A stretch of DNA of 64,000 nucleotides, from NCBI GenBank assembly GCA_965651205.1, contig CBFGRM010000003.1, positions 16,181 through 80,180 on the forward strand. Direction: 5' to 3'. Shown here piece by piece: positions 9,423 through 46,138 of this stretch. The position numbers and the translations under genes are program-made. The number at the start of each line of letters is the position of its first letter. Positions within the stretch are counted from its first letter, which is position 1. The notes under the pieces are model-generated. The model did not search any database. It saw only the letters and a list, made by a program, of their open reading frames with translations, and was not told the DNA's origin. Origin of the DNA: an uncultured bacterium. Lineage in GTDB: Bacteria; Gemmatimonadota; Gemmatimonadetes; Gemmatimonadales; GWC2-71-9.

Positions 9423-9449
9423 TAAGATCGCCGCCCGGCGAACCGATAA
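9423..9449 (+). promoter_or_regulatory. sigma28 (FliA) promoter for motAB operon
   Basis: TAAG-N15-ACCGATAA matches TAAA-N15-GCCGATAA consensus. Confidence 0.8.
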
Positions 9450-9487
9450 CCCACGTCGGAGCGTGCATTCACCGGTGAGGAGCCGCT

Positions 9488-10357
9488 GTGGTCGCTATTG
9501 TCGGGATCATCGTTGTCGTCGTGGCCGTGCTGGGCGGATTCGCTATGGCGAACGGCCCGTTTGGCGTGCTGCTGGCCTGGTCCGAATGGGTGATCATCGT
9601 CGGCACCGGCCTCGGCACGATGCTGGTCGCCACCCCGGCCCCGGTGCTCAAGTCGATGTTTGCCCGGATCCCCAAGGTGTTCAGGCCCAGCCCATACGAC
9701 CGCTCGTTGTACCTGGACGTGTTGCGGCTGCTGTTCGAGCTGTTCCAGACCGCCCGGCGCGACGGCCTGATCGCAATCGAGTCCCACATCGAACGGCCCG
9801 AGGAAAGCGAGATCTTCAAGCGGTATCCCCGCTTCCTCGCCAACCATCACGCAGTCGAGTTCCTCAGTGACGCGCTCCGAACCGTGCTGGTGGGCAGCGT
9901 GTCGGCGTTCGACCTCGAGGCGATGCTCGAAGCGGAGATCGAGGTGCACCACGACAGCGCGGCCCTGCCCGTTACCGCACTCAACCGGGTGGCCGATTCG
10001 CTGCCGGGCATCGGCATCGTGGCCGCCGTCCTCGGCATCGTCGTGACGATGCAGAGTCTGGGCGGACCGATCGAGGAGATCGGTCACCACGTCGGCGCGG
10101 CACTGGTGGGCACCTTCCTCGGCATCCTGCTGTCCTACGGTTTCCTGGCGCCGATCGCGGCCAATATGGAGGCCCGCAACGGCGAGGAACACGGGCTCTA
10201 CTTCGCACTCAAGGCCGGCATCGTGGCGTTCGCCAAGAACCTGCCGCCGATGGTGGCGGTCGAGTTCGCGCGCAAGGCAATCAACGGTGATTCCCGGCCG
10301 ACGTTCCTGGAGATGGAAGCCGCCTGCAAGGCAACCAGGAAGGAAGCCACGGCGTGA
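9488..10357 (+). CDS. motA: Flagellar stator protein MotA
   Basis: ARRDGLIAIESHIE, LPGIGIVAAVLG, ALVGTFLGILLSYG, VEFARK. Confidence 0.96.
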   Translation: MVAIVGIIVVVVAVLGGFAMANGPFGVLLAWSEWVIIVGTGLGTMLVATPAPVLKSMFARIPKVFRPSPYDRSLYLDVLRLLFELFQTARRDGLIAIESHIERPEESEIFKRYPRFLANHHAVEFLSDALRTVLVGSVSAFDLEAMLEAEIEVHHDSAALPVTALNRVADSLPGIGIVAAVLGIVVTMQSLGGPIEEIGHHVGAALVGTFLGILLSYGFLAPIAANMEARNGEEHGLYFALKAGIVAFAKNLPPMVAVEFARKAINGDSRPTFLEMEAACKATRKEATA

Positions 10358-11175
10358 AGACCGAGCGCGAGCAGGTGATTCGCGTGGTCCGCAAGCGGCG
10401 CAAGGCGCACGGCCATCACGGCGGGGCGTGGAAGGTGGCGTTCGCCGACTTTATGACGTCGATGATGGCGCTGTTCCTGGTGCTGTGGCTGATCACCCAG
10501 AGTTCCGAGGTGCGCACCGCAATCGCCGGCTACTTCCAGGACCCGCTGGGACGCGCCAAGCAATTCGGTTCGTCGGTGGTGCCGGGCGAGGGTCAGCCCT
10601 TGCTGCCCGCCAAGCCTACGGTACAGGTGACGATGGCCGACGGCCGACGCGAGCAGTTGATCGCGCTCAGCGAGAAGCTGCGCAACGCACTGCCCGACAG
10701 CACCGACCTGGACGATCTCCGCGATCACGTCGAGATCGTGATCACCGACGACGGCCTGCGGATCTCGCTGCTGGAGGATTCCACCGACGTGTTCTTCGCC
10801 AGTGGCGACCCGCGACCGCTGCCACGCGCCGTGGTGCTGTTCGCCGCGATCGGACAGGTACTGAGCACCACCGGCTACACCGTGGTTATCGAGGGGCACA
10901 CCGACGCGATGCCGTATCGCGGTCGCGACGACTATGACAACTGGGAGCTCAGCGCTGGTCGAGCCAATTCGGTGCGCCGGGCCCTGCTCAAGGGCGGGCT
11001 GGGTGACGTGCAGGTAAGCGCGGTGCGCGGCCTGGCCGATCGCGAGCCCCGCATCGCAGCCGATCCATACGCCCCGCAGAACCGCAGGGTGACGATCCTG
11101 GTGTCGGTGCCTGATCCGCTGGCGGAGGCCGATCCCACCGTGGCAGCGTTCTCCACCGGAAAGTCCTCCACTTGA
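10354..11175 (+). CDS. motB: Flagellar stator protein MotB
   Basis: HGGAWKVAFADFMTSMMALFLVLWL TM with conserved Asp; OmpA-like EGHTD, NWELSAGRA, NRRV. Confidence 0.96.
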   Translation: MKTEREQVIRVVRKRRKAHGHHGGAWKVAFADFMTSMMALFLVLWLITQSSEVRTAIAGYFQDPLGRAKQFGSSVVPGEGQPLLPAKPTVQVTMADGRREQLIALSEKLRNALPDSTDLDDLRDHVEIVITDDGLRISLLEDSTDVFFASGDPRPLPRAVVLFAAIGQVLSTTGYTVVIEGHTDAMPYRGRDDYDNWELSAGRANSVRRALLKGGLGDVQVSAVRGLADREPRIAADPYAPQNRRVTILVSVPDPLAEADPTVAAFSTGKSST

Positions 11176-12332
11176 GTGGCCAGGCCGGGCAGCGACTGCT
11201 GCTTGTCGACGACAGCGCCCCCCGTCGAGCCGAGCTCGGCTTTACGCTGGAATCGAGTCACGGCTTCCGGGTGACTTCGTGCGCAACCGTTCGCGAGGCG
11301 CGCGACCGACTGGCCGAGTTTCCCGACTACGTGGCAGTGGTGACGCGCGCCACGCTGGGCGACCAGGACACCATTCCGTTGCTGCAGCGGGTGGCACGCG
11401 CCGGTTCCACCGGTCCCGTCGTGGTGGTGATCGCCACCGCCGCAGAGCAGGGATTGCGCCGATTGGCGTGGAGCGAGCGCGCAACCGCCGTGATCACCGA
11501 GCCGTTCGACGACACCGAGCTTGCCGCAGCACTCAGGTCGGCGCTGCTTCAGCGGCAGGCCCGCATCGACGCCATATCAGTGCAGCACGAACTGGCCAGC
11601 AGTGTCGACCACCTGCTGGACGTGCTGGTTCGGGTGCTCGACGCCGCGGTGCCGGGTTCGGCCGATCGCGCCGCCGAGCTGGTCCGACTGGTGAGCGGCA
11701 TCGGCGCGCACTTCACGATGGAATCGGTCCTCAGTGACGACCTGCTCCGAGCCGCGCGACTTGCGGAAGTGGGCCGGATCAATGCCGGCGTTGCGTCCGG
11801 TGATCGTGCCTCTCCCGGCGGCGGCTGGCCGCTGGCCTCCGCGCGCGTGGTGGCCCAGGTGCCGTTCCTGGAGAATGTCGCCACGTTGCTGGAACACGTC
11901 AGCGCCAACTGGGATGGCAGCGGCTGGCCGCAGGGCGTGCAGCGCGGCGAGATCCCGCTGCGGTCACGGATCCTGCGAGTGGCCCTCGACGCCCTGGCAC
12001 TGACATCGGGCGGTGGCGACACGCCGATGAGCCTGGCCGATGCCGCGACGCACCTGTCGACCGACAGCGGTCGGCGCTACGACCCTGCCGTGGTGGCGGC
12101 GCTCAGTGCGCTGGCTGCAGAAGGAAGGCCGTCGCTATCGGGGGAACAGACCAGCTCGGTCAGTTATGACCGCCTTGCGGAGGGAATGCAGCTCGCTGCC
12201 GACCTGCACACGATGTCGGGAGTCAAGCTGCTGTCGGCAGGCACGGTGCTCACCGGAACCACGCTGCAGTTCCTGCGACGTCGCCACGAGCTCGATCCAC
12301 TGGTGCTGCCGATACCGGTGCTGCAACGCTGA
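11172..12332 (+). CDS. Pseudo-receiver + degenerate HD-GYP domain protein, coupled to motB
   Basis: REC fold (LLLVDD...EPF) lacking phospho-Asp and Lys; HD-GYP-like AARLAEVGRI, EHVSANWDGSGWPQG...EIPLRSRIL; C-terminal LAEGMQLAADL...GVKLLSAGTVLT module; 4-nt overlap with motB. Confidence 0.8.
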   Translation: MSGQAGQRLLLVDDSAPRRAELGFTLESSHGFRVTSCATVREARDRLAEFPDYVAVVTRATLGDQDTIPLLQRVARAGSTGPVVVVIATAAEQGLRRLAWSERATAVITEPFDDTELAAALRSALLQRQARIDAISVQHELASSVDHLLDVLVRVLDAAVPGSADRAAELVRLVSGIGAHFTMESVLSDDLLRAARLAEVGRINAGVASGDRASPGGGWPLASARVVAQVPFLENVATLLEHVSANWDGSGWPQGVQRGEIPLRSRILRVALDALALTSGGGDTPMSLADAATHLSTDSGRRYDPAVVAALSALAAEGRPSLSGEQTSSVSYDRLAEGMQLAADLHTMSGVKLLSAGTVLTGTTLQFLRRRHELDPLVLPIPVLQR

Positions 12333-12338
12333 CACGAC

Positions 12339-12593
12339 TCAGTCGTCGGCGGCCCCGGGCCGGGGACGTGCCAGGGCCGGAATGAGCCCGTCGGGCAGGG
12401 CGACATCCGCGGTCACCGCCGCGCGACGGTTTTCCTCGGCCACCTGCTGCAGCAGTTCCTCGCGCAGCACCGACCGCTCGCGCGGCGCTTCGATGCCGAG
12501 CCTTACGCCCCGATGATCGCTTGAGAGCACCACGACGCGCACGTCACCGTCGATGACGATCGCCTCACCTTCCCTGCGCGTCAGGACCAGCAT
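12339..12593 (-). CDS. csrA: Carbon storage regulator CsrA (FliW-binding type with C-terminal extension)
   Basis: MLVLTRREGEAIVI...VRLGIEAPR...REEL...EENRRAA. Confidence 0.95.
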   Translation of the reverse strand: MLVLTRREGEAIVIDGDVRVVVLSSDHRGVRLGIEAPRERSVLREELLQQVAEENRRAAVTADVALPDGLIPALARPRPGAADD

Positions 12594-12595: not shown

Positions 12596-13963
12596 TCAGA
12601 CCATCCGCAGCACGTCTTGCATCATCTCGTCGGCGATGACCACCAGGCGGGAGGCCGCGGAGAATGCCTGTTGCTGCTGGATCAGCTTGATCATTTCCTC
12701 GTCGGTCGACACGCCGTGCACCGCCTGCCGCTGGGATTCGATGCTGGCTGTCAGCACGCCGGACGACTCGGCTGCCTGTGAGACATCGCGCACGATGCCA
12801 CCGAGACTGGCCACAACACCCGACAGGAATCCGGCCGGCGTGTCGCCGTTGAGGGAGGCGAACGGTGTGTGCCGCAAGGCGGCGATCTGCAGCGCCACGG
12901 CGTTGTCACCACTCGCTGCCGTGGCACCCGCGGCGATGTTGCGTACATCGGCAAGCGCGTCGCTCGACAGCGCGATGGTGCTGGCGGTGACTCCGGCCGG
13001 ATCGAACAGCGCCACTCCGGTGGTGCCGTTGCCGGTGTATCCCGCAGCGTGCGCCGAGTTGACCGCCGTCACCACTGCCTGGGCCAGCCGGTCCAGTTCG
13101 GCGCGCACGCCGGGGATTCCCTCGTTGATCAGTTCGGTGAGCCCCTGCAGCTTGCCGGCACCGTTGTTGACCAGCCGGGTGGAGCCGACAGTGCCCACCG
13201 CCAGCGCGCCGCCACCTTGCGGCCGTACTTCGAGGTCCTGTGCAACGCCGCCATCTACCAGCATTGCGTCGCCACCCATCACTGCAACCACACCGTGATC
13301 GCGGGGCAGCACCCTCACCTGGATCAGCCCGCTCAACTCGTCGATCCGGGCGTCGCGGATGTCCTCGAGATCGGGCGCGGTGTTGAGCGGACCGCCGCGA
13401 GCGGCAATCTCCTTGTTGAGACCGGCGATCTCGCGGGACAGGGTGTTGATCCGGGCCACCGTGTCATCGTACTCGCGACGGATCGCCACGCCTTCGCTGT
13501 CGAATCGCGCACCGGTCTCCCGGAGCCGGCTCGCCACCAGTGCCGCGGCGCTGCGCACCGCCACTCGCGCCGAACCGCTGGTGGGAGAATCGGCCAGATC
13601 GCTGAATGCGTTCCAGAAGCCATCGAGCGCCGCGCTGATTCCCAGCTCTCCCGGCTCCATCAGGGCGCCCTCGACTCGGGCCAGCGCGGTGCGCAGCGTG
13701 TCGGCGCGGGCGAAGTTGCCCTGTTCGCGCCTGAACGCAGCATCCAGGAACTGGTCACGGGCATTGAAGACCGCGACACCGCGAACACCGCGACCTACGC
13801 TGCCGTACGGGGTGTACAGCGGTGTCTCGGCCGCAAGTTCCAGCCGCTGACGGGTGTACCCCGGAGTGGTGGCGTTGGCGATGTTGTGCGACGTGACCGC
13901 CATCGCACGCTGGTGGGTGGTGAGCGCGGTCCGCGCGATGCTGAGAAGTGAGGCAAGCGACAC
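12596..13963 (-). CDS. flgK: Hook-filament junction protein FlgK
   Basis: SHNIANATTPGYTRQR; C-terminal GVSTDEEMIKLIQQQQAFSAASR. Confidence 0.95.
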   Translation of the reverse strand: MSLASLLSIARTALTTHQRAMAVTSHNIANATTPGYTRQRLELAAETPLYTPYGSVGRGVRGVAVFNARDQFLDAAFRREQGNFARADTLRTALARVEGALMEPGELGISAALDGFWNAFSDLADSPTSGSARVAVRSAAALVASRLRETGARFDSEGVAIRREYDDTVARINTLSREIAGLNKEIAARGGPLNTAPDLEDIRDARIDELSGLIQVRVLPRDHGVVAVMGGDAMLVDGGVAQDLEVRPQGGGALAVGTVGSTRLVNNGAGKLQGLTELINEGIPGVRAELDRLAQAVVTAVNSAHAAGYTGNGTTGVALFDPAGVTASTIALSSDALADVRNIAAGATAASGDNAVALQIAALRHTPFASLNGDTPAGFLSGVVASLGGIVRDVSQAAESSGVLTASIESQRQAVHGVSTDEEMIKLIQQQQAFSAASRLVVIADEMMQDVLRMV

Positions 13964-13965: not shown

Positions 13966-14475
13966 TCAGGCGCTCCGGTTGACGAGCGTGCCCCCGGGCA
14001 TCGCTGGTTGCGCCTTGCGGCGCTGCGGATCGCCGTACGATGTGGACTGCGGCACCACCGAACTGAACAGCGCCTGCAGGTAGGCATTGCCGGCGTGCAT
14101 CGCGCCCTGAAGCACTTCCTGTGTCAGCGCCAGGTCACGGATCGTCGCCTCGGCTTCGCGACGCAGCGCGGCGCGCGATTCCTTGAGACCCTCGACCGGA
14201 CCGAGCTCCTGTTCGAGAGTGTCGAGTCGCACCGGCCGGCCGCCCGACGCCAGCCGCAGCAGGTCCTCCCGGCGGCGCCTGGCAGCGTCGAGAGTCAGCA
14301 CCGTGCTGGCCACCGCGCGCGATGCCAGTTCGATCGCCTCGGGGTCGCTGCTCGCCACTCCATCGCGTTGCTGCCCCAGCGCCAGCCGCAGTTGTCGGAG
14401 CAGTTGCTGCTCGCCGCGCGTGGACGCCACGATTTGTTGCGCGGCGTCGCGGGCTGATTCAGCGATCGGATCCAT
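13966..14475 (-). CDS. flgN: Flagellar export chaperone FlgN-like
   Basis: Helical 169 aa between flgJ and flgK; C-terminal SYG...TLVNRSA tail typical of FlgN. Confidence 0.7.
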   Translation of the reverse strand: MDPIAESARDAAQQIVASTRGEQQLLRQLRLALGQQRDGVASSDPEAIELASRAVASTVLTLDAARRRREDLLRLASGGRPVRLDTLEQELGPVEGLKESRAALRREAEATIRDLALTQEVLQGAMHAGNAYLQALFSSVVPQSTSYGDPQRRKAQPAMPGGTLVNRSA

Positions 14476-14794
14476 CTGCCGCCTCCAATGTCCCCTGGGG
14501 CACGACTGCAGTCGCTCCCTCGGGTGGCAGGTGGCGACTCAATTGGCGATAAAGCGACACTGCAAGCCCGCGATCATTCTGCCTGACGGCTTCCAGTGCC
14601 ACCTGTTCATCCAGCATCCCGCGGAAGATCCGTTCCCCCGCCGACGGCTCCATCAGGCCGCCCTCCGGAACAGCATCCCGCATCGCCTGCAACATCTGCT
14701 GCAGGAACACCGCTTCGAGCGCCTGCGCCTGCTCAAGCAACCTGGCGTGATCGCTGCCCGGCGGCGGTGCCACGGGCCTGATCGGTGGCGTCAT
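14459..14794 (-). CDS. flgJ: FlgJ rod-binding (rod-cap) domain only, no muramidase domain
   Basis: AQALEAVFLQQMLQAMRDAVP...FRGMLDEQVA...GLAVSLYRQL; 111 aa. Confidence 0.9.
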   Translation of the reverse strand: MTPPIRPVAPPPGSDHARLLEQAQALEAVFLQQMLQAMRDAVPEGGLMEPSAGERIFRGMLDEQVALEAVRQNDRGLAVSLYRQLSRHLPPEGATAVVPQGTLEAADGSDR

Positions 14795-15831
14795 CGCACC
14801 ACCACCGCTGCGGTGACCGCACCGGCCGCCCTGAGCCCGTCGAACACTGCCACCACATCGCTGGCACGCGCGCCGAGGGCGCGCAGGCCGGTTGCGATGT
14901 CCTGCACCGTTGCCCCGGCTTGCAGTGCGATCAGTCCCTCGGGCAATACCGCATTGCTGTCGGCGACCGAGCCACCGACCCGCAAGGTCAGCCCCTCGAG
15001 CGACACCACTGCATCGCTCACCATCACCCCGCCACCGGCTACCACCGTGCCGGTGCGGCCGTCGATGACGATCCTGGCCGGTGCCGACACGGCAACCGGG
15101 ATGGTGTCGATCGAGGCCAGAAAGCTGACGAGGTTATCGGTCGAGCCCTGGGGTGGGCTGAGTTCGACCGCACCGGGGTCGATCGCCCGCGCCGTACCAT
15201 CGCCGAGTGCTCCGTCGATCGCCTCGGCGATCCGGGCGGCGGTGGTCAGGTCCGGTGTCTTGAGAAGCAGCCTCGGCGTGCCGCCGTCGCCCACCGCCGG
15301 CAGCGGGGCCTCCAGGATCCCGCCGTCGGGGATCCGCCCGCTGGCTCCACCGCGACTGCCCCAGCGACGACGACCCTCACCGACCTCCACCGGCAACGCG
15401 CCCTGCGCGCTCGCCAGGGGCGGCGCATCGGGCGAGGCAAGCATCGGCGTGATCCACAGTACGCCGCCCTTGAGCGAGGTCGCATCGCCCAGTGACGCCA
15501 CCTGCACCTCGAAGCGGCCACCGGGCCTGGTGTGGGGCAGCAATTCGGCTGTCACCACCACCGCCGCGACGTTGCGCAGCCGCAGCCTCTCGGCGGGGAT
15601 CTCGACATTGAAGCGGCGCAGCAGGTTGGTCACCGAGCGCACCGTGTGAACCGCGCCGACATTGCTGCCGAACGAACGATCGCCCGTGCCGTCGAGTCCG
15701 ACCACCAGACCGTAGCCGACCAGTCGCACCGGGATCTCGCCCTCACGGAAGGTCAGATCGCCGACCAGCGACTGCGCGACCAGTGCTGTCGGCAGCAGCA
15801 GGGCGAGCAGGCCCAGTCGGATCACGGCCAC
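14791..15831 (-). CDS. flgI: Flagellar P-ring protein FlgI
   Basis: LVGYGLVVGLDGTGD, NVAAVVVTA, SLGDATSLKGG, IVIDGRTGTVV. Confidence 0.95.
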   Translation of the reverse strand: MAVIRLGLLALLLPTALVAQSLVGDLTFREGEIPVRLVGYGLVVGLDGTGDRSFGSNVGAVHTVRSVTNLLRRFNVEIPAERLRLRNVAAVVVTAELLPHTRPGGRFEVQVASLGDATSLKGGVLWITPMLASPDAPPLASAQGALPVEVGEGRRRWGSRGGASGRIPDGGILEAPLPAVGDGGTPRLLLKTPDLTTAARIAEAIDGALGDGTARAIDPGAVELSPPQGSTDNLVSFLASIDTIPVAVSAPARIVIDGRTGTVVAGGGVMVSDAVVSLEGLTLRVGGSVADSNAVLPEGLIALQAGATVQDIATGLRALGARASDVVAVFDGLRAAGAVTAAVVVR

Positions 15832-16433
15832 AGGAACCCCAGCAGCTTGCCCAGGATGCCGGTCTTGGGGCCGATCTTCTTGCCGAGATAGTAGATCTCG
15901 CCGTCGGCAATGCGCGAAGAGAGCACCGTGTTCTGTTGCGACACGTCCTCCGAGCGCACCACGCCGGTGATCCGCAACTCCTGACGGCGGCCATCGATGG
16001 TCACCAGCTTGTTGCCCTCAACCGTGGCCAGCCCGGCCTGGTCCACGGTCAGAACACGGACGCTGACGACCGCTATCAGCGAGCCGGAGCGCTCGCGCCT
16101 GCCGGTCTGATCGGACGATGCACCGTAGCCGATCCCCAGCGCCTCAAGATCTTCAGGGGCAAACTTGGCGCTGAGTGAGGCGCGCTGATTGCGGTCGGAT
16201 CGCGCCACGTCGGAAGCCCGTTCGGTGGCCAGGGCTCGCTCGTCGACCACCACTGTCAGGATGTCGCCCACTCGAAGCGGCCGACGATCGCTGGTCCACG
16301 ACTGCCGCACCGGTGGCCCCGAGATCACCACTTGAGCGCCGCTGTCCGCCACCGCAGGCACCTGGGCCGGTGCCAGTGCGATGTCCAGCATCAGCAGCAG
16401 GGCGCACACCACTGCACAGGTTCGCATCTTCAT
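15822..16433 (-). CDS. flgH: Flagellar L-ring protein FlgH
   Basis: DRRPLRVGDILTVVVDE, EGNKLVTIDG, ITGVVRSEDV...NTVLSSRIAD; ATG at 16433 overlaps flgA stop. Confidence 0.9.
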   Translation of the reverse strand: MKMRTCAVVCALLLMLDIALAPAQVPAVADSGAQVVISGPPVRQSWTSDRRPLRVGDILTVVVDERALATERASDVARSDRNQRASLSAKFAPEDLEALGIGYGASSDQTGRRERSGSLIAVVSVRVLTVDQAGLATVEGNKLVTIDGRRQELRITGVVRSEDVSQQNTVLSSRIADGEIYYLGKKIGPKTGILGKLLGFLWP

Positions 16434-17104
16434 CGTGAGCCGCCTTCCAGAATGGCCTCTCCGGGGCCGGTGGCACGGCCGGTCAACCGCGCGTCTCCTG
16501 CCCGGGCACGGACCGATTCTCCCAGCCGTGCCGATGCGATCGCGGTGGCCACCCTTTCGAGTCGCACCGCACCGCGTTGCCACACGAACGCCACCTTGTC
16601 GCCGGCCGCAATCACCCGAGGTGATTGCAGCATAGACTGATCCAGCGGCTCGCCGGTTGCCACCGCGCGGCGCACTTCCCACCCGATCGGCAACTCGTCC
16701 TGCAGGCTGTGGTTGGCGCTGCCCCACGCCACAGCACAATCCCAGGTGACATCGGTATCGGCTATGATGTGGCCGCGCCCGAGCGGTCGCGATGCGACCG
16801 GCAACCGTGACACCACGCCGCCTCGTACTCTCACCGCCACCGGTCCGGCTTCGCCGCGCCGCACCGTGGCGACCAGCCAGCCGCCCTTGCCAACCGGCCC
16901 CAGTCTCACGGTCACCGCACCGGTGTCGGCCGCCCAGGCGGGCAGTCGCCCCCACTCCAGCACCAGTTCTTCCGGATCGGCGTCCAGTTGCTGCGCAAGC
17001 GCCTCGCGCACCGCCCGCGACACCGGCAACGGCGGCACGGTGTCGGCAGTCGGCGCGGGGAGGCCCGCCACCAGTGTCAGCAGCAACTCAGCGGATGAGA
17101 TCAT
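16430..17104 (-). CDS. flgA: P-ring assembly chaperone FlgA
   Basis: SAF-like VASRPLGRGHIIADTDV, VIAAGDKV, ARLGESVRAR; between flgG and flgH. Confidence 0.85.
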   Translation of the reverse strand: MISSAELLLTLVAGLPAPTADTVPPLPVSRAVREALAQQLDADPEELVLEWGRLPAWAADTGAVTVRLGPVGKGGWLVATVRRGEAGPVAVRVRGGVVSRLPVASRPLGRGHIIADTDVTWDCAVAWGSANHSLQDELPIGWEVRRAVATGEPLDQSMLQSPRVIAAGDKVAFVWQRGAVRLERVATAIASARLGESVRARAGDARLTGRATGPGEAILEGGSR

Positions 17105-18616: not shown

Positions 18617-18632
18617 AGCAAGCGGCGTGCCG
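18617..18632 (-). promoter_or_regulatory. sigma54 promoter for flgF-flgG-flgA-flgH-flgI-flgJ-flgN-flgK-csrA
   Basis: Minus strand CGGCACGCCGCTTGCT; IHF-like tract ~18648-18672. Confidence 0.8.
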
Positions 18633-38481: not shown

Positions 38482-38761
38482 GGTCGCGGATCGCCGTGCG
38501 CAGGTCGGCGTAACTCTTCTGCAGCAACCGGGCAGTTGCCTCGTAGCGAAGCTGGGTGTCGGCCAGTGCCGCCATCTGTCGGGTCAGCTCGGCGTCGCTG
38601 TTGGCGATCGAGTCGTTCAACTCTCCTGCGAACCCGGTGATGCTGCTCTGGCGAACATCGGCCACTCGTTCAGCGATCGCGCGGTGGGTCGCCGATGCCT
38701 CGTCCAGGCCACCACGCAGTGCCTGAGTCACCGTGCCTGCCCCGAACAACCTGCTGATCAC
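38474..38761 (-). CDS. flgB: Rod protein FlgB, unusually short/divergent
   Basis: First gene upstream of flgC; GLDEASATHRAIAERVAD...QMAALADTQLRYEATARLLQKSYADLRTAI matches FlgB terminal helices. Confidence 0.8.
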   Translation of the reverse strand: MISRLFGAGTVTQALRGGLDEASATHRAIAERVADVRQSSITGFAGELNDSIANSDAELTRQMAALADTQLRYEATARLLQKSYADLRTAIRDRG

Positions 38762-38797: not shown

Positions 38798-38813
38798 AGC
38801 AAGCGCCGTACCA
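38798..38813 (-). promoter_or_regulatory. sigma54 promoter for flgB...flgE operon
   Basis: Minus strand TGGTACGGCGCTTGCT; IHF-like tract ~38832-38854. Confidence 0.82.
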
Positions 38814-38934: not shown

Positions 38935-40308
38935 TCAGGCGCTGAGCGGCAGGTTCAACCGGTTGCGGAGGGTCCGCTCGGAGATCCCGAGCAGTTGTGC
39001 CGCCTTGGATCGCACTCCACCGGACAGGTCAAGTGCGCGCTGGATCGCCAGCGATTCGAGCTCGGCAAGATTGACCGGCAGGTCGTCGGTGGCCGGAGCA
39101 GTTCGGTCTGCCGCGGAAAGACGGGGCCTGCCGCCGTGCGACGGTGCGGTGTCGAGCAGGAAGTGCTCGACCGTCAGCCGGGCGCCGTCCGCCAGGATCA
39201 AGCCCCGATAGGTGGCATTGATCAGTTCGCGAACATTGCCTGGCCAATCGTAGGCCATCAGTTCCTCGAGTGTCTCGTTCGGCAGGGTCGGTGTCGGGAT
39301 CCCCATCGAGTGCGAAGCCAGTGCCATCGCGTGGTTGAGGAGTTCAGGCACGTCATCCGGGCGCTCGCGCAGCGGCGTGGTCTTGAGCGGCACCACCTGC
39401 AACCGGTAATAGAGGTCTGCCCGGAACCTGCCCGCCTCCACCTCGGCCTGGAGGTTCCGGTTGCTGCTGGACACCAGTCGCACGTCGACCCGGATGGTGT
39501 CGCGCCCGCCGACTCGCTCGAAGTCGGACTCCTGTATCACGCGGAGCAACTTGGCCTGGAGGTCGAGCCGCATCTCGGAAATCTCGTCGAGGAACAGGGT
39601 GCCGTTGTCGGCGCGCTCGAACGCGCCGAGCTGCCGCTGGGTGGCACCGGTGAAAGCGCCCTTCTCGTGTCCGAACAAGGTGCTCTCGATCAGTCCCTCG
39701 GGCATCGCGGCGCAGTTGATCGAAACGAAGGGCCCGTCGGCGCGGCGGCTGCGCTCGTGCACCGAGCGCGCCACCAGCTCCTTGCCGGTGCCGGACTCTC
39801 CCTCGATCAGCACCGAAACGTCACTGGCGGCAACCAGCCCGATCATCCGCCGCAGCTCCTGCATCTGACGCGACACCCCCACCAGGGCGCGTGAGCCGCT
39901 GGCGCCATCAGCCTGACGGCGGACTGCCCGGCGATCCCGCTTGAGTGCCGCACCGGTGCGGGCGTGCTCCAGGGCCAGAGCGAGTGCCTCGACCCGCACC
40001 GGCATCGGCAGATAGTCGGCGGCCCCGCTGCGCATCGCGTGCACGGCGTGCTCCACGGTGCCATCGCCTGAGAGGATGACTATCGGAGTGGGGCAGTTGT
40101 CGGGGTCGATGCGGCCGAGGAGCTCGAGGCCAGGATGATGGGGGCGCTGACAGACGACGACGGCGAGGTCGCCAACTCCGAGGCTGAAGGGTCGCCAGAC
40201 GCTGTCGACGTCGGCAAAGAATTGCGACTCGTAGCCCAGTCGTTCGAGGTGTGCTTCCAGATTTGCGGCATCGGCAGGGTCCTCAGCCACACAAAGGATC
40301 CGCGTCAT
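38935..40308 (-). CDS. sigma54-dependent flagellar master activator (FleQ/FlrA-like) with pseudo-receiver
   Basis: GESGTGKE, GAFTGA, FLDEI, RADLYYRL, WPGNVREL, Fis HTH; N-terminal REC lacks phospho-Asp; ATG at 40308. Confidence 0.9.
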   Translation of the reverse strand: MTRILCVAEDPADAANLEAHLERLGYESQFFADVDSVWRPFSLGVGDLAVVVCQRPHHPGLELLGRIDPDNCPTPIVILSGDGTVEHAVHAMRSGAADYLPMPVRVEALALALEHARTGAALKRDRRAVRRQADGASGSRALVGVSRQMQELRRMIGLVAASDVSVLIEGESGTGKELVARSVHERSRRADGPFVSINCAAMPEGLIESTLFGHEKGAFTGATQRQLGAFERADNGTLFLDEISEMRLDLQAKLLRVIQESDFERVGGRDTIRVDVRLVSSSNRNLQAEVEAGRFRADLYYRLQVVPLKTTPLRERPDDVPELLNHAMALASHSMGIPTPTLPNETLEELMAYDWPGNVRELINATYRGLILADGARLTVEHFLLDTAPSHGGRPRLSAADRTAPATDDLPVNLAELESLAIQRALDLSGGVRSKAAQLLGISERTLRNRLNLPLSA

Positions 40309-40356
40309 CGGATCATTCTGGTCTGTCCAAGTGGGTTCCGTCCGTTGTCGGGTGGC

Positions 40357-40383
40357 TAAGCAACAAAAGAAAGCATCCGATAA
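40357..40383 (+). promoter_or_regulatory. sigma28 promoter for flgL-fliW
   Basis: TAAG-N15-TCCGATAA. Confidence 0.8.
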
Positions 40384-40412
40384 CCGTGTGTCAACCAACC
40401 ACCGGAACCAGG

Positions 40413-41285
40413 ATGCGCATCTCCGACAGTCAACGTTTCGATTCGCTCGCCAGACAGCTTGCCGTACAGCAGGCAGCACTGGTTCGGGCAAGCGAGCAGA
40501 TGAGTTCCGGACAGCGGTGGTCGAGGGTCTCGGAGGATCCGGTTGCTGGTCGTGAAGTGCTTGACATCGACACCACGCTTCGTGCCCTGGCCCAGTCGCG
40601 GCGCGCCATTGGGCGGGCCCGCGAACGATTGGCAACCGAGGAGACTGCGCTGCAGCAGCTCACCGACATCACCGCCCGGGCCAAGGAGCTGGCAACAGGT
40701 CAAGGGAGCGCAAATGCCACCGCGAGCTCCCGCGCAGCCACCGCTGCCGAGATCGGACAGCTTCGTCGCGAGATGATCTCGATCGGCAACCAACGCGTCG
40801 GCGGCGAGTACATCTTCGGTGGACTCGAAACCGCCACGGCTCCGTTTGCGGCCGACGGCAGTTACCTGGGCACCCCCACTGCACGAGTCACAACCTTCGG
40901 ACCGGGGTCCGAATCCGAAGTTATCCACAGTGGCCAGCAGATCTTCGTCGACACCGGATTGCTCACCGCGCTGGCCGACCTCGAGGCGGCACTGCTCGCC
41001 AACGACGTCGATGCAATACAGGACAGCGTGACGGCCCTCGACCAGGGGTTCGATGGCGTCCAGTACCTGCTGACCGAAATCGGCGCCCGCGACCGGACCC
41101 TGGACCAGACGGTGGCGACTCTCGACAGCCGCGAGGACACGCTGAGTGTCCGCCGGGCCGAACTGGCGGAGATCCCGCTGGAGGAGGCGACGATGAATCT
41201 CGCCACGGTACAGACCGCGCTTCAGGCCGCCTATCTCGCGACATCCCGGATCCAGTCTCTCTCGCTCGCGGAGTACCTGCGATGA
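40413..41285 (+). CDS. flgL: Hook-filament junction protein FlgL
   Basis: MRISDSQ...QMSSGQRWSRVSEDP, GEYIFGG, IGAR, LQAAY...LSLAEYLR. Confidence 0.93.
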   Translation: MRISDSQRFDSLARQLAVQQAALVRASEQMSSGQRWSRVSEDPVAGREVLDIDTTLRALAQSRRAIGRARERLATEETALQQLTDITARAKELATGQGSANATASSRAATAAEIGQLRREMISIGNQRVGGEYIFGGLETATAPFAADGSYLGTPTARVTTFGPGSESEVIHSGQQIFVDTGLLTALADLEAALLANDVDAIQDSVTALDQGFDGVQYLLTEIGARDRTLDQTVATLDSREDTLSVRRAELAEIPLEEATMNLATVQTALQAAYLATSRIQSLSLAEYLR

Positions 41286-41698
41286 CCGCCGCACGCGCGC
41301 TGCCGCTGCCCAGCACTCTCGAGGTGGTGACCCTTCGGTTCGGCACCCTGACGGTGCCGGCCGAATCGGTGGTTCACTTTCCGGAGGGGCTGCCAGGCTT
41401 CGACGGGCTGCGGCAGTTCGTGCTGATCGACATCCGGCCCGACCTGGCCTGGCTTCAGTCGATGGAGCATCCGGCACTGGCGTTCCTGCTGGTGCGTCCG
41501 TGGCGAGTTGTGGCTGGTGCCTGGGACGACGACGCCACCGCCTGGGCCATCGTCACCCCCGGAGCTGGCCCCGACAGCGCCACCGCCAACCTGATGGCAC
41601 CGATCCGGATCGATGCCGACAAGCGGATCGGTCGGCAATGGATCCACCCCGACGCCGCCTGGTCTGCCACCGAACCGGTCGACATCGCCGCGACCTGA
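41282..41698 (+). CDS. fliW: Flagellar assembly factor FliW
   Basis: RFGTL...FPEGLPGF...WLQS...AFLLVRP...TANLMAPI...GRQ. Confidence 0.92.
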   Translation: MTAARALPLPSTLEVVTLRFGTLTVPAESVVHFPEGLPGFDGLRQFVLIDIRPDLAWLQSMEHPALAFLLVRPWRVVAGAWDDDATAWAIVTPGAGPDSATANLMAPIRIDADKRIGRQWIHPDAAWSATEPVDIAAT

Positions 41699-41816: not shown

Positions 41817-42899
41817 ATGTCACGTATTCAGACCAACGTGGCCGCCAATTCCGCGTACCGGAACCTGGCCACCACCTCGGCGGCGCTTGAGCGCCAGATC
41901 ACCAAGCTCTCGTCGGGCTACCGGATCAACCGGTCGGGCGACGACGCAGCCGGCCTGGCGATCGCCAACAAGCTCCGCGCCGAGAGCCGTTCGCTGCAGC
42001 AGGCGTCGCGCAACGCCGCCCAGGGCATCTCGATGCTGCAGATTGCCGACGGTGCAGTGAACACCGTGTCGGGCATCCTCGACCGGATGAAGGAACTCGC
42101 TTCGGCGGCCAACTCGGCGTCGATCGGCACCCAGACCGACAAGCTGAACGCCGAGTTCCAGCAGCTCATCTCGGAAATCGGCCGCATCGCCGCAACCACC
42201 AAGTACCAGGGCTCGGCACTGGTCAATGGCACCCTCGGCAACACGGTCGACGCCTCCAGCACCTACGCTGGCCAGGTCACGCTCAGCGGAGCCGCCAGCG
42301 GCACCTACACCTTCACCAGCACCGGTGGCGTGGCAACACTGAGCTTCGGCGCGGGTGCCACGTTGCAGACCCAGGCGATCTCGATGCCCGCCGGCGCCGG
42401 CACCTACAACTTCGACGCCTTCGGCATCACGGTCACCAACGCCGGTGGCTACACGGCCGATGGGGTGAACAATCAGACCATCGTCGTCGCGGGCACCGCG
42501 GTCGAGTTTATGGTGTCGTCGTCTGGCTCCTACAGCGGTGACGACCTCGTGTCGCTGAGCCAGGTCAACCTGACCACCGCCAATCTCGGCGTGGCCGGCC
42601 TGGTCCTCACCGACGCCGACACGGCCCAGGCCGCGCTGACGGCGATCGACACCGCCATCAACACGGTCAACACCGCCATCGGCACCATCGGTGCGGCCCA
42701 GTCGCGGATGGAGTTCGCCGCGGCCAACGTCGCCACGATCACCCAGAACGTGATGGCGGCGGAGTCGACGATTCGCGACGCCGATATGGCGCTCGAGTCG
42801 ACTGCGTTCACCAAGTACCAGATCCTCCAGCAGGCTGGCACCGCGATGCTCGCCCAGGCGAACGTTTCGGCCCAGTCCGTGCTCGACCTGCTGCGCTGA
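41817..42899 (+). CDS. fliC: Flagellin
   Basis: RIQTNVAA, KLSSGYRINRSGDDAAGLAIA, IRDADMA, QQAGTAMLAQAN; 360 aa. Confidence 0.98.
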   Translation: MSRIQTNVAANSAYRNLATTSAALERQITKLSSGYRINRSGDDAAGLAIANKLRAESRSLQQASRNAAQGISMLQIADGAVNTVSGILDRMKELASAANSASIGTQTDKLNAEFQQLISEIGRIAATTKYQGSALVNGTLGNTVDASSTYAGQVTLSGAASGTYTFTSTGGVATLSFGAGATLQTQAISMPAGAGTYNFDAFGITVTNAGGYTADGVNNQTIVVAGTAVEFMVSSSGSYSGDDLVSLSQVNLTTANLGVAGLVLTDADTAQAALTAIDTAINTVNTAIGTIGAAQSRMEFAAANVATITQNVMAAESTIRDADMALESTAFTKYQILQQAGTAMLAQANVSAQSVLDLLR

Positions 42900-42966: not shown

Positions 42967-44904
42967 ATGACGGCACCACTCGTTTCATTCAGCGGACTGG
43001 CCTCGGGGTTCGACTATCGCAGCCTGGTTGATGCCATCATCGATCAGGAGCGGCAACCTGCCGTCCGCCTCGAGTCCCGGATCAACAAGCTGGACAGCCA
43101 GCAGGCCGCACTGGAAACACTGCGCAGCCTGGTGGGCAGGCTCGAGTCGGCAGCGTCGGCACTGCGCGACGGCAGCGCATTCGACGCCACCACCAGCACC
43201 ACCGCGATCCTGAGCGGCACCAGGGCACTGGCCACGGTAGCCACCACGCCCGGAGTGCAGCAGGGGAGTCACACCCTCACCGTGAGCCAGCTCGCTCGTG
43301 CCCAGAAGCTGGTCGGCACCGGGGTCGCGGCCACCGTCGATGCGATCGGTGCCACCGGCACCATCAGCATCAATGGCCAGGCGATCGACATCGGGGCCAC
43401 CGATACACTTGCAACGATCCGCGACCGGATCAATGCGCTCAACACCGGCGCCACGCCGAGCGGTGTGGCAGCCACGATCCTGTCGGTGTCTTCCACCGAT
43501 CACCGCCTGGTGCTCACCAGCAGCACGACCGGCGCTGCCGGCATCGACCTCGCCGACACCAGCGGCACGATCCTGCAGCAGCTCGGCTTCCTCGATGGAG
43601 GGGGCGAAGTTGCGGCTGCGGCCATCCTGACCGAAGGCAGCGACGCGATATTTGCCATCGACGGCATCGAGATGACCCGCAGCAGCAACGTCATCTCCGA
43701 CGCACTCGAGGGCATCACGCTGACACTGGTTGCCGACGACGCCGGTGCCGAGACCGTGATCACCACCGGTCGGTATGCCGATGCCGCCCGCAACTCGATG
43801 CAGGCGTTCGTCGACGGCTACAACGAGTTGGTCGCATTCATCAAGTCGCAGGGCACCGCATCCGAGTCGTCGGTGCCGGCGCTGTACAACGACCCGATGC
43901 TGCGCGGCCTGAGGCGCGACCTGCCATCAGCGCTGCTGGCGGGCGTGCTCGGCGCCAGCAGCGATATGCAGACCGCCGCCAGCGTGGGCCTGTCGCTGTC
44001 ACGCGAGGGCGTGCTGTCGCTCGACGCCAGCACCTTCGACAGCGCATTCAACGATCGACACTCCGACCTGCGCAGCCTGTTCACCGAACAGCGCACCAGC
44101 AGCAACCCCGAACTGCACTTCGTGTCATCCGCGAGCGGAGTCGCCAGCGGTACCTGGGACGTGGAGATCAGCGCCCTTGCCACCGCAGCCACCGTGGTCA
44201 CCAGCGGCTTCAGCGGCGTCTACGATGCCGGTGCCACTGCCGACACGATCACCCTGACCGACACCCGCACTGGTCGCCAGGCAAGTGTCGCACTCACCAC
44301 CGGGATGACCACCGTCGACATCGTGGGAGCCCTGACCGATGCGATCGACAACGAGGGTCTGTCGATCGATGTTGTCGCCGAGGGCAACGACATCCGGCTG
44401 ACCCACAGGTCGACGGGATCGGCCAGCGGGATTTCGATTTCCCTTGCAGCCGTGGGCGATGGTGCGTCCGAGGCGTGGTCGGCCGACGCAACCGTTGCAG
44501 GCACCGACATCGCAGGCACCATAGGTGGCCAGGCTGCCACCGGATCCGGCAACGTGCTGGTGGGCGCGAACGGCACCGATGCGGCCGGGCTCACTGCCCG
44601 CTACGAGGGCAGCACCACCGGAGTGATCGCGACACTCTCGCTCACCGTCGGCACCGGTGCCGCGATCGAGCGGATCCTCGATCGCTACATCGAAACCGGC
44701 GGCACGTTCGACCTGCGTCGGATGTCGATCGACGACCAGATGAGCCGTGCCAGTGACCGCATAACCGAGATCGACGGTCGGCTCGAGCGGCGCCGGGCCA
44801 ATCTGCTGGCCCGATTCGTGGCGATGGAAGCAGCCATCGCCCGCTTGCAGCAGGCGTCGACCGGCTTCCTCAACGCACTCAATCCGAGCAACCGGAGCGA
44901 CTGA
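42967..44904 (+). CDS. fliD: Filament cap protein FliD
   Basis: SGLASGFD, VSQLARAQ, RSSNVISD..GITLTL, FVDGYN, LLARFVAMEAAI. Confidence 0.95.
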   Translation: MTAPLVSFSGLASGFDYRSLVDAIIDQERQPAVRLESRINKLDSQQAALETLRSLVGRLESAASALRDGSAFDATTSTTAILSGTRALATVATTPGVQQGSHTLTVSQLARAQKLVGTGVAATVDAIGATGTISINGQAIDIGATDTLATIRDRINALNTGATPSGVAATILSVSSTDHRLVLTSSTTGAAGIDLADTSGTILQQLGFLDGGGEVAAAAILTEGSDAIFAIDGIEMTRSSNVISDALEGITLTLVADDAGAETVITTGRYADAARNSMQAFVDGYNELVAFIKSQGTASESSVPALYNDPMLRGLRRDLPSALLAGVLGASSDMQTAASVGLSLSREGVLSLDASTFDSAFNDRHSDLRSLFTEQRTSSNPELHFVSSASGVASGTWDVEISALATAATVVTSGFSGVYDAGATADTITLTDTRTGRQASVALTTGMTTVDIVGALTDAIDNEGLSIDVVAEGNDIRLTHRSTGSASGISISLAAVGDGASEAWSADATVAGTDIAGTIGGQAATGSGNVLVGANGTDAAGLTARYEGSTTGVIATLSLTVGTGAAIERILDRYIETGGTFDLRRMSIDDQMSRASDRITEIDGRLERRRANLLARFVAMEAAIARLQQASTGFLNALNPSNRSD

Positions 44905-45305
44905 TGACCGCGCCCACTCCCGCCACGTTGTACCGCCAGATGGACGTGATGGCGATGTCGCCGGCTCAGCGGATCGTCGCGCTCACCGCCCGGGTGCACC
45001 TTTCGTTGCGTCAGGCCCGCATCGCGATCGAATCCGACGACGTGGAACAGCGCGAGGCACGCCTGAACACCGCCACCGCGATCCTGCACGAACTTGCCGG
45101 GGCGCTCGACATCGAACGCGGTGGCGAGATCGCCACCCGACTGGCTGGCCTGTACACCTGGCTGATCCGGGAATGTCTCGCGGTACACCTCGAACCGGTC
45201 GCAGCCCGACTCGATTCGCCCATCGCCGTGGTCGCCGAACTGCACTCGGCCTGGTCCGAGGCGGCCCGGGTGTCGCTGCAACCCAGCGTGGCCGGTGCCG
45301 CGTGA
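44904..45305 (+). CDS. fliS: Flagellin chaperone FliS
   Basis: YRQMDVMAMSPAQ, ELAGALDIERGGEIATRLAGLY, ELHSAW. Confidence 0.92.
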   Translation: MTAPTPATLYRQMDVMAMSPAQRIVALTARVHLSLRQARIAIESDDVEQREARLNTATAILHELAGALDIERGGEIATRLAGLYTWLIRECLAVHLEPVAARLDSPIAVVAELHSAWSEAARVSLQPSVAGAA

Positions 45306-45748
45306 GCAGGCCCGAGGTTGCCGCGGCAGAGGAACTGCTGGCTGCTCAGCTTGCCGACCTGGTACGCTTTCGGGACGTGGTCGAGGCCCAGCGCGCAGTG
45401 CTGCGCTCGGACGACGCCAGGCTGCTGGAGCGGTTCTCGCACGAAGCCGAAGAACTGGCTGCCACCGTGGCCGGACGGGAAGTCCGCCTGCTGGCGCTGC
45501 GCCGCAGCATCCAGATGGCCGACGCCGGGCGGGAACCGCCATCGATCCGGTCGCTCGCGGCCCAGGTCGATCGGGCCCGCAGCGTAGCCACCGCCGAGGC
45601 CAGCGCCCTGGCCCGGATGATCGAAGCCGATGCCAAGGAACTGGCGCGCGAGCTGGAGGCCACCTCGCGCCAGCTCGGTCAGGTGCTGGGCGGCTATTCC
45701 CGCCAGAGTGCACCGGGCCAGCCCCTGCTGATCAACCGACGGGCCTGA
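45302..45748 (+). CDS. Second FlgN/FliT-like helical chaperone
   Basis: GTG overlapping fliS stop; all-helical; C-terminal GY...LLINRRA tail; occupies the usual fliT position. Confidence 0.65.
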   Translation: MSRPEVAAAEELLAAQLADLVRFRDVVEAQRAVLRSDDARLLERFSHEAEELAATVAGREVRLLALRRSIQMADAGREPPSIRSLAAQVDRARSVATAEASALARMIEADAKELARELEATSRQLGQVLGGYSRQSAPGQPLLINRRA

Positions 45749-45753
45749 CCGAC

Positions 45754-45780
45754 TCAGCTTTCGCAGACCGCGACCGATAA
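45754..45780 (+). promoter_or_regulatory. sigma28 promoter for flgM
   Basis: TCAG-N15-ACCGATAA. Confidence 0.8.
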
Positions 45781-45847
45781 CCGGGTCAGGTGACGGGCGC
45801 CCCGCTGGGCGCTATGTTCGGATATACCGGCTAGGAGGGATGAGACG

Positions 45848-46138
45848 ATGGCAATCGATCCGCTGGGTTCCGGCAGTATTTCCGAATCAGGGCAGAAGAG
45901 CGTCGGTAGTGTGTCGCCTGCCGACAGCAAGGTGGCAACGACAGCACTGCGGCCAGCCGCCACCGACAGCGTCGAGGTGTCGGAGGAAGCCCGTCGACTG
46001 GCCGAACCCGACATTCCCGTGGGCAGCGTGTCGCCCGAGATGCTTCGCCAGGTTTCGTCCCGCATCAGCGACGGCAGCTACAACGTTGATTCGGTGATCG
46101 ACACCATCGCCGAGCAGTTGCGAGACCAGATCCTCTAG
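45848..46138 (+). CDS. flgM: Anti-sigma28 factor FlgM
   Basis: DSVEVSEEAR...RISDGSYNVD...IAEQL; AGGAGG RBS. Confidence 0.85.
   Translation: MAIDPLGSGSISESGQKSVGSVSPADSKVATTALRPAATDSVEVSEEARRLAEPDIPVGSVSPEMLRQVSSRISDGSYNVDSVIDTIAEQLRDQIL

Follow-up and report, generated by a model that had tools for sequence, protein, structure and literature searches.

A sole flagellar system with a FliM lacking the CheY-docking peptide in an uncultured Gemmatimonadota bacterium

The flagellar block and the N-terminus of its FliM

The window analysed here is a stretch of 64,000 nucleotides (G000:C3:16181-80180) from the genome assembly of an uncultured bacterium (G000; 2.38 Mb in 152 contigs, completeness 95.5%, contamination 0.28%). 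It contains a flagellar regulon of 40 or more genes, which is continuous and intact from motA to a weakly matched flgM (9488-46138) and probably encodes a working flagellum. The subject of this study is the switch protein FliM of this regulon, which lacks the N-terminal peptide used by CheY as a docking site. Both the near-completeness of the block and the missing peptide had been noticed in an earlier, sequence-only reading of the stretch, and the profile searches described below bear out both observations. The system is the only one of its kind in G000, with one FliM match and one FlhA match genome-wide. The best 80 relatives of the TypA protein (68-91% identity) are all metagenome-assembled genomes labelled Gemmatimonadota/Gemmatimonadales/Gemmatimonadaceae, and the best named relative of FlhA belongs to the Gemmatimonadaceae too.

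Because of the GC content of the window (about 67%), the lists of open reading frames (ORFs) are crowded, and hence the gene calls rest on family matches: we used Pfam and NCBIfam profiles and, for unmatched ORFs, conserved position in relatives. Gene calling by the GC content of third codon positions alone was too ambiguous at this composition and was dropped in favour of family matches.

The fliM gene starts with GTG at 28175, directly after the stop codon of fliL, and the orthologues in G012 and G065 have the same start. The stretch before the conserved YDF-RRP core is only 13 residues long, and upstream of the start the reading frame is closed by an in-frame stop. The LSQxEIDxLL (EIDAL) peptide is absent from this N-terminus, the peptide-bearing relatives serving as positive controls; a six-frame scan of the entire G000 assembly yielded no EIDAL-like peptide. 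The FliM equivalog model TIGR01397 aligned over positions 31-318 of 320, with none before 31, and scored 115.9 bits at a cut-off of 219.6. The remaining domains are in place, namely, the middle, CheC-like domain (PF02154, cut-off 27 bits; residues 26-210 of the long ORF) and the C-terminal FliN-like (SpoA) domain (PF01052, cut-off 23.8 bits). Canonical docking of CheY on this FliM would be impossible, judging by its N-terminus.

To our knowledge, the EIDAL peptide has been treated as a near-universal link of chemotaxis to the flagellar motor. The same motif is also the FlhG docking site in polar flagellates, its deletion producing multiple flagella (PMC12826062; bioRxiv 10.1101/2022.04.21.489128); deletion of FliM_N or the E9K substitution leads to straight swimming and/or extra flagella (bioRxiv 10.1101/2022.04.21.489128); and CheY gains its other sites on FliM and FliN only after being tethered to FliM_N (PMC4642947). 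A predicted complex of FliM with the CheY of G000, computed for both proteins without alignments and uncontrolled, scored 0.00 and counts neither way.

Table 1. Features of the flagellar block (positions in the window; bits, profile scores)
Feature	Position	Strand	Evidence
MotA stator protein	9488..10357	+	PF20560 87.6 bits, PF01618 40.8 bits
MotB stator protein	10354..11175	+	MotB_plug 61.4 bits, OmpA 39.8 bits
Pseudo-receiver and degenerate HD-GYP protein	11172..12332	+	HD_5 70.4 bits; REC 28.0 bits, under its cut-off of 30.2
CsrA	12339..12593	-	PF02599 66.9 bits
FlgK hook-associated protein 1	12596..13963	-	FlgK_D1 166 bits
Conserved ORF without family, FlgN position	13966..14475	-	29-52% identity, same place, 7 relatives
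FlgJ-like rod-binding protein	14459..14794	-	PF10135 48.2 bits
FlgI P-ring	14791..15831	-	PF02119 262 bits
FlgH L-ring	15822..16955	-	PF02107 101.6 bits, residues 217-359
FlgA	16430..17104	-	ChapFlgA 60.5 bits
FlgG distal rod	17088..17870	-	three rod/hook domains
FlgF proximal rod	17902..18585	-	Flg_bbr_C and D1 domains
Sigma54 promoter-like site, upstream of flgF	18618..18632	-	CGGCAC-N5-TTGC, 1 mismatch
FliA (sigma28)	18953..19720	-	TIGR02479 213 bits (cut-off 189.6)
FlhG (MinD-like ATPase)	19711..20532	-	AAA_31/ParA/CbiA matches; between flhF and fliA
FlhF GTPase	20529..21488	-	SRP54 92.7 bits; TIGR03499 129.5 bits, under cut-off
FlhA export gate	21481..23655	-	FHIPEP 835 bits
FlhB	23652..24743	-	Bac_export_2 365 bits
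FliR	24747..25649	-	Bac_export_1 154 bits
FliQ	25547..25816	-	Bac_export_3 89 bits
FliO-FliP, single ORF	25816..26931	-	FliP 252 bits, FliO 28 bits
FliN	26932..27240	-	FliMN_C 88 bits; TIGR02480 92.7 bits, over cut-off; without EIDAL peptide
FliM without N-terminal CheY/FlhG docking peptide	27237..28175	-	PF02154 83.7 bits, FliMN_C 31.8 bits
FliL	28177..28917	-	PF03748 38.4 bits
FlgE hook	28927..30177	-	four hook domains
FlgD	30174..30881	-	FlgD 84 bits
ORF without family, FliK position	30878..32308	-	30-43% identity to ORF in relatives
MgtE_N-like small protein	32305..32709	-	PF03448 24.7 bits, under cut-off
FliJ (weak)	32706..33152	-	PF02050 20.7 bits, under cut-off; position
FliI ATPase	33149..34522	-	ATP-synt_ab 285 bits, T3SS_ATPase_C 69 bits
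FliH	34467..35195	-	PF02108 72 bits
FliG (EHPQ motif = EQAQ)	35035..36072	-	FliG_N/M/C matches
FliF MS-ring	36051..37496	-	YscJ_FliF 183 bits
FliE	37501..37812	-	PF02049 75.6 bits
FlgC	38059..38481	-	rod domains
ORF without family, FlgB position	38474..38761	-	38-73% identity to ORF in relatives
Sigma54 promoter-like site, upstream of flgB	38799..38813	-	TGGTAC-N5-TTGC, 1 mismatch
Sigma54-dependent activator, pseudo-receiver	38935..40308	-	Sigma54_activat 237 bits, HTH_8, REC 38.8 bits
FlgL hook-associated protein 3	40251..41285	+	Flagellin_N 49 bits, Flagellin_C 25.7 bits
FliW	41282..41698	+	PF02623 69.6 bits
Flagellin	41817..42899	+	Flagellin_N 119 bits, Flagellin_C 81 bits
FliD cap	42967..44904	+	FliD_C 127 bits, FliD_N 67 bits
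FliS	44904..45305	+	PF02561 90 bits
FlgM-like anti-sigma28 factor (weak)	45848..46138	+	PF04316 20.6 bits, TIGR03824 21.1 bits, both under cut-offs

All flagellar ORFs of the block that are assigned to a family, a few of them weakly, are open and have no internal stop. No Pfam or NCBIfam match was obtained for the ORFs in the FlgN, FliK and FlgB positions (the latter tested at E <= 0.001). The flgL gene was located by a genome-wide flagellin search; the longest ORF of flgH runs into flgA, the real start lying further downstream; and the 371-residue FliO-FliP frame is either an apparent fliO-fliP fusion or an ORF whose start is not settled. Other flagellar genes are syntenic with those of the relatives, most of the proteins being 50-87% identical to the ones in G000. 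FlhF and FlhG are kept as well (37-66% identity across relatives). The earlier suggestion of a polar flagellum under number control is doubtful on one point, since EIDAL, the docking site of FlhG in polar flagellates, is missing.

The rpoN gene was found elsewhere in the genome. Sigma54 promoter-like sites are not more frequent in the window than expected by chance (nine found, 5.2 expected), and it is only by their positions that the sites before flgB and flgF are suggestive.

Upstream of the block the window contains a hybrid histidine kinase with HATPase_c and receiver domains and without a HisKA match (2327-3805, minus strand) and a 943-residue Ser/Thr kinase with TPR repeats (6011-8842, plus strand); the latter was not found beside the hybrid kinase in two non-flagellated congeners. 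We also looked for an empty site of the flagellar cluster. The non-flagellated G014 and G062 are syntenic with the window on the left flank only (EF-P, kinase, 802-residue protein), the stretches compared did not reach the right flank, and no clean deletion junction was seen in them.

Loss of the peptide in the genus and the phylum

The distribution of the peptide was analysed in two samples, one of the genus (44 genomes at least 80% complete, G000 included) and one of the phylum (251 genomes at least 85% complete, evenly drawn). Genomes flagged as unpublished were counted in the tallies (G058 for the genus; G110, G147, G203 and G227 for the phylum) or included in the searches for relatives (G024), their sequences being left unused.

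FliM is present in 19 of the 44 genus genomes; the same 19 have FlhA, and 25 have neither. The FliM N-terminus was read in all 19. The peptide is kept in nine of them (G004, G006, G010, G015, G022, G042, G044, G045, G061), among others in the forms LSQQDVDSLL, TNQKDVDSLL, LSQTDIDRLL and LSQQEIDAMV, and is absent in ten (G000, G008, G012, G013, G017, G048, G049, G050, G064, G065). It is also present in the less complete G005 and G021 and in the outgroups G025 and G037, and absent in the outgroup G029. As the peptide-less and peptide-bearing clusters are syntenic, the difference must have arisen within one inherited cluster. In the peptide-bearing G015 (G015:C7:178140-178698) the fliM matches lie in two adjoining frames, with a frameshift near residue 80, which may be either a sequencing error or the mark of a pseudogene.

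In the FlhA tree (17 genus rows and two outgroups, without G050, which the program dropped, and without the partial G042) the peptide-less genomes occupy at least three positions, requiring at least four changes of state. The clade (G013,(G000,G012,G065)) has support 99/97; the clade (G008,G049,G017,G048) has support 100/99 and is sister to the peptide-bearing G022/G004 at 90/92; and the peptide-less G064 stands alone. Forcing the peptide-less genus rows into one clade made the tree worse by 19 log-likelihood units (p-AU 0.026), the constrained group having been named after the tree had been seen. This pattern suggests that the peptide was lost in at least two to three clades of the genus, by several independent losses.

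The FliM core was only 28-39% identical in peptide-less pairs at 81-85% FlhA identity, and 53-55% identical in peptide-bearing pairs at 76-79% FlhA identity (G015 and G050 were dropped from this comparison, and G042 was outside the set). The ratio dN(FliM)/dN(FlhA) was 2.0-2.4 in five peptide-bearing pairs versus 2.7-5.1 in four peptide-less ones, dS being near saturation in these pairs; the values for the G008 clade were 5.1 and 4.4. The Pfam FliM scores show the same tendency (38-94 bits versus 105-142 bits for peptide-less and peptide-bearing genomes, respectively; the frameshifted, two-fragment G015 left out). The FliM core thus seems to evolve faster where the peptide is gone. At the same time, dN/dS of FliM stays below 1 and the protein keeps its full length; together with the synteny of the clusters, these features argue against decay of the organelle. 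The EHPQ(R) motif of FliG, which contacts FliM (residues approximately 133-138), reads EQAQ in G000 and EQPQ, ESPQ or ENPQ in several peptide-less relatives, and it is EHPQ in most peptide-bearing genomes, with the exception of G061 (ESPQ).

In the phylum sample, 63 of 251 genomes have FliM, and in 14 of these the TIGR01397 match begins at position 19 or later. Eleven of the latter were read afresh, along with five same-genus controls, and seven turned out to be peptide-less (G239, G090, G248, G188, G229, G140, G264), the N-termini of G084 and G176 not being settled and not counted as such. The start of the TIGR01397 match alone was rejected as a proxy, since it over-calls the loss: G195 and G175 carry LTQRDVDQLL with a short linker. 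Together with G000, G049 and G029, the peptide-less FliMs number 10 of 63 and come from at least six genera in three families; peptide-bearing congeners are also present in genera g50, g51, g52 and g1. In G264 (G264:C415:11700-12330), which belongs to another genus of the same family, the first residues of the peptide-less FliM, YDFRRPPWIGRDRRAILDG, are closely like those of the G000 clade; this type of FliM may predate the genus, or it may have been passed from one genus to another.

The sequence-only reading had proposed to test whether the loss of the FliM N-terminus co-occurs with the absence of che genes across the phylum. The association proved to be weak and does not amount to a rule: no CheR was found in four of the ten peptide-less genomes and in 6 of the 53 other FliM-bearing genomes. 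Of the genomes sampled, 96 of 112 in the family have a CheR, versus two of nine in this genus, which seems to have lost methylation-dependent chemosensory systems throughout.

Chemosensory genes and receiver-like domains

In genome-wide family searches no CheW, methyl-accepting chemotaxis protein (MCP), CheR, CheB, CheA dimerisation domain or HATPase_c match (24 of the last in the genome) fell inside the flagellar block, as had been claimed from the sequence. The nearest HATPase_c domain, the sole one on the contig, is that of the hybrid kinase, 5.7 kb outside the block. The implied absence of chemotaxis genes, in contrast, did not hold. The genome-wide search that had been proposed for che and MCP genes and for a second fliM recovered the former and no trace of the latter: G000 has a cheW-cheY-cheA-cheC operon on another contig (C23, minus strand) and two MCPs on still other contigs. 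The CheA has the Hpt, dimerisation, ATPase and CheW-like domains, and the CheY, which retains Asp, Ser and Lys, is canonical. CheR and CheB gave no match in the assembly, 95.5% complete as it is. Of a dedicated flagellar pathway, CheA, CheW, CheY and MCPs were found in G000, and neither CheR and CheB nor linkage of these genes to the flagellum.

On one strand of C23, ileS-dksA-lspA-rluD and then the four che genes are followed by genes for one TPR protein, for two DUF4388 (PATAN) and three Roadblock/LC7 proteins, and for a DnaA-like ATPase. At the tail of the operon, which in this wider extent covers 2056-13089 of C23, we noticed a protein with two DnaA-type ATPase domains, followed by a further PATAN-TPR protein. 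Synteny of this 15-gene neighbourhood extends to each of the 11 congeners compared, both flagellated (7 of 7) and non-flagellated (4 of 4; G001, G002, G014, G023). Across them CheY is 82-93% and CheC 75-88% identical, and the alpha4-beta5-alpha5 face of CheY is invariant regardless of the flagellar state. One CheA is present in 20 of the 25 genus genomes without FliM and FlhA. Thus, the operon is part of the core equipment of this genus, independent of flagella, and, being kept in non-flagellated congeners, it is not flagellum-specific. Its gene content suggests a che-driven module for polarity or pili; a PilB-PilT pair is present in G000.

Nearly all genus genomes hold exactly one CheA, a second one being found only in the peptide-bearing G022 and G004, within a CheA-CheW-3xMCP cluster (in G022, G022:C2:892418-902739) about 20 kb from the flagellar genes. 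This second CheA has two CheW-like domains, and in G022 a cheR gene immediately adjoins the flagellar cluster (G022:C2:909314-909865). The second cluster may be a remnant of a dedicated flagellar pathway lost in the rest of the genus.

The flagellar block itself encodes two proteins with receiver-like domains, and the claim that both lack the phosphorylatable aspartate is upheld. We aligned them with the CheY of G000 and the receiver of the upstream hybrid kinase, both of which have Asp and Lys in the key columns. In the receiver of the sigma54-dependent activator, the phospho-Asp is replaced by Val and the conserved Lys by Met, the fold still being matched (PF00072, cut-off 30.2 bits); in the protein encoded after motAB, whose receiver match is below that cut-off, the Asp column contains Ala or Arg, depending on the alignment, and the Lys column contains Glu.

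For the activator this state is recent and specific to G000 and G013, since orthologues in 11 relatives keep the phospho-Asp, among them the peptide-less G008, G017, G048, G049 and G029. The change to Val is found only in G000 and G013, and the loss of Lys only in G000 (the contigs of G012 and G065 stop short of the gene). The change in the activator is a clade-specific event of its own, separate from that in FliM. As flgL occupies the DNA upstream, the start of the activator was taken as the ATG at 40308 and not that of the longest ORF. The protein has the sigma54-interaction AAA+ domain (PF00158) and a Fis-type helix-turn-helix (HTH) domain (PF02954, 40 bits); no FleQ-domain family was among its nine Pfam matches, the N-terminus scoring as an ordinary receiver, and the best NCBIfam scores, to the NtrC, AtoC and FlbD models, are each under the cut-off. 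The upstream hybrid kinase was considered as a lost partner of the activator and rejected: it has matches at E <= 1e-30 in 42 of the 44 congeners, the closest ones (52-58% identity) being in non-flagellated species, and thus lies outside the flagellar module.

Catalytic HD-GYP domains have an HD metal dyad and an HHExxDGxGYP motif. In the protein encoded after motAB the HD_5 domain is matched (PF13487, cut-off 27.2 bits), with the dyad reading AE in G000 and HE in six orthologues; HHE..GYP is replaced, as read by eye, by EHVSANWDGSGWP, and GYP is GWP in G000 and G(W/M/I/A/T)P across relatives. The gene directly follows motAB in six of the nine relatives' loci compared, and the receiver is degenerate in all orthologues but that of G017, which has the Asp. 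The protein thus represents an old, conserved pseudo-enzyme of the flagellar cluster, regardless of the state of FliM. A PilZ-type motor brake was also considered and rejected, as no PilZ domain was found in the G000 genome; five GGDEF proteins are encoded there.

Proposed uncoupling of the motor and known systems

We propose that the sole flagellum of this bacterium has lost its coupling to canonical CheY steering and to the docking of FlhG on FliM, a loss proceeding lineage by lineage, and put the probability of this at approximately 0.55. The motor would then be free of canonical control by phosphorylated CheY (CheY-P) and would most likely rotate smoothly and mainly in one direction, as a propeller for dispersal. 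The sigma54 activator would set the expression of the regulon, either constitutively or via protein partners such as FlhG, followed by control through FliA/FlgM and then by a CsrA/FliW-flagellin checkpoint. Control of torque, if any, would be exerted at the stator, with the pseudo-receiver/pseudo-HD-GYP protein as a candidate. The single CheA-CheY pathway would most likely act elsewhere, for instance on type IV pili or on cell polarity, as the PATAN/Roadblock context suggests.

Several observations weigh against such uncoupling. The che operon includes a CheY-P phosphatase of the CheC type, and the CheA and CheY of G000 score best against archaeal motility-type models, typical of motility pathways. 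The peptide-bearing G006, G010, G015, G044 and G045 hold only this one CheA, and the motor in these genomes may therefore be a target of the same CheY. The ratio dN(FliM)/dN(FlhA) is raised slightly in the clade of G000 itself (2.7 versus 2.0-2.4); at the given completeness of the assembly, a gene may be missing; and it is from sequence that we infer the uncoupling, for behaviour and binding alike.

If CheY-P still steered the motor, EIDAL would have to be replaced by a non-canonical contact or adaptor, involving the middle domain of FliM, FliN, FliG or an unrecognised protein. Such an arrangement would make sense of the retention of CheA, CheW, a canonical CheY, CheC and two MCPs in G000. It would also suit the phylum sample, where CheR-type systems persist in six of the ten genomes without the peptide; the cheR of G239 is near the flagellar genes, some 41 kb away from fliM, and the peptide-bearing congeners of G239 show the same arrangement. 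This coexistence of peptide-less FliM with rich che repertoires is also the main caveat to uncoupling, as the loss of the peptide is not generally tied to the loss of chemotaxis and a coupling not yet recognised may exist. Continuing change in FliM and in the EHPQ motif of FliG in the peptide-less lineages could likewise reflect a remodelled interface. However, the operon is no less conserved in the non-flagellated congeners, the peptide-less FliMs whose N-termini were read in the genus and the phylum show no new conserved N-terminal motif, no cluster gene in the loci compared is specific to peptide-less genomes, and the secondary CheY sites depend on the tether in the systems studied (PMC4642947). 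We thus regard continued steering by CheY-P as rather unlikely, though deserving serious attention.

The loss could also act mainly on the number or placement of flagella, for example, yielding several of them, with chemotaxis a side issue. The phenotype of EIDAL deletions in polar flagellates described above and the retention of FlhF and FlhG are in line with this, whereas the partner of FlhG varies by lineage, being FliY in Bacillus (PMC12826062). As one deletion removes both contacts, an effect on flagellar number does not exclude the uncoupling from CheY, and as the principal consequence we find it improbable. Finally, the short FliM could be an artefact of mis-assembly or of a mis-called start, or the cluster could be heading for loss: G000 is assembled in as many as 152 contigs, loss is common in the genus, 25 of 44 congeners having no flagellar genes, and fliM of G015 is split across two frames. 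Nevertheless, the short N-terminus recurs in ten independent genomes of the genus and in seven more of the phylum, fliM of G000 is preceded by an in-frame stop, the family-assigned flagellar ORFs are all open, and dN/dS of FliM is below 1, which makes artefact or decay highly improbable.

Tentatively, and with appreciably less assurance than for the uncoupling in G000, we suggest that the CheY-FliM tether could be evolutionarily disposable in the Gemmatimonadota, being lost repeatedly while the flagellum, FlhF/FlhG and CheA-CheY persist. If so, these bacteria would swim without taxis, steering being left to the PATAN/Roadblock-linked pathway acting on pili or polarity; alternatively, CheY or another signal would be coupled to the motor without EIDAL in a still unknown way, for which the pseudo-receiver/pseudo-HD-GYP protein is again a candidate. 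Sister species with and without the peptide, whose clusters are otherwise syntenic, provide a naturally occurring set of matched motors, "plugged" or "unplugged", which could show how far the tether is needed, how FliM and FliG evolve after its loss, and how a flagellum is used without canonical taxis. The Gemmatimonadota are a widespread, little studied phylum of soil and water, the source bacterium being of the soil type. A literature search, with most subscription journals outside its reach, found no paper describing this pattern of peptide loss in the phylum.

No EIDAL motif is known from FliM2 of Shewanella putrefaciens, which neither CheY nor FlhG addresses. In Pseudoalteromonas SM9913, CheY bound the polar FliMp and not the lateral FliM in a two-hybrid assay (PMC10304486). 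Like these two proteins, the FliM of G000 would not be addressed by CheY in the canonical way, which in our case is read from the sequence alone; unlike the lateral and secondary systems of these dual-flagellated gammaproteobacteria, which stand beside a polar flagellum steered by CheY, the flagellum of G000 is the sole one, belongs to another phylum, is accompanied by both FlhF and FlhG, and has a peptide state that is polymorphic among species of one genus. In Shewanella putrefaciens and Vibrio alginolyticus, the same peptide is lost or damaged in laboratory mutants with FliM_N deleted or with the E9K substitution, the reported phenotypes being straight swimming along with abnormal chemotaxis and more than one polar flagellum (bioRxiv 10.1101/2022.04.21.489128); the deletion in the Gemmatimonadota, in contrast, occurs in nature and has become fixed, more than once, in several lineages. 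We know of no che genes in Aquifex aeolicus. That bacterium swims mostly smoothly, has an unusual switch and is reported to be without FliM (PMC7355467), whereas G000 has FliM minus the tether and keeps one che pathway.

Pseudomonas aeruginosa PA2572 is a degenerate HD-GYP protein, and the G000 protein is similarly a motility-linked receiver with an HD-GYP domain devoid of catalytic residues, differing in that its receiver is degenerate too and in the position of its gene after motAB in most of the loci compared. That position recalls Shewanella, where motL, the gene of a PilZ protein, directly follows motAB (PMC8203827), so that in both cases a small regulator gene stands after the stator genes. 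FlhG/FleN modulates FlrA/FleQ (PMC12826062), and, like FleQ/FlrA and FlbD-type regulators, the sigma54 AAA+ activator of G000, with its HTH domain and an unphosphorylatable receiver-like domain, heads the flagellar cluster; unlike FleQ, it has no FleQ-domain match, and its orthologues in the 11 relatives keep the phospho-Asp.

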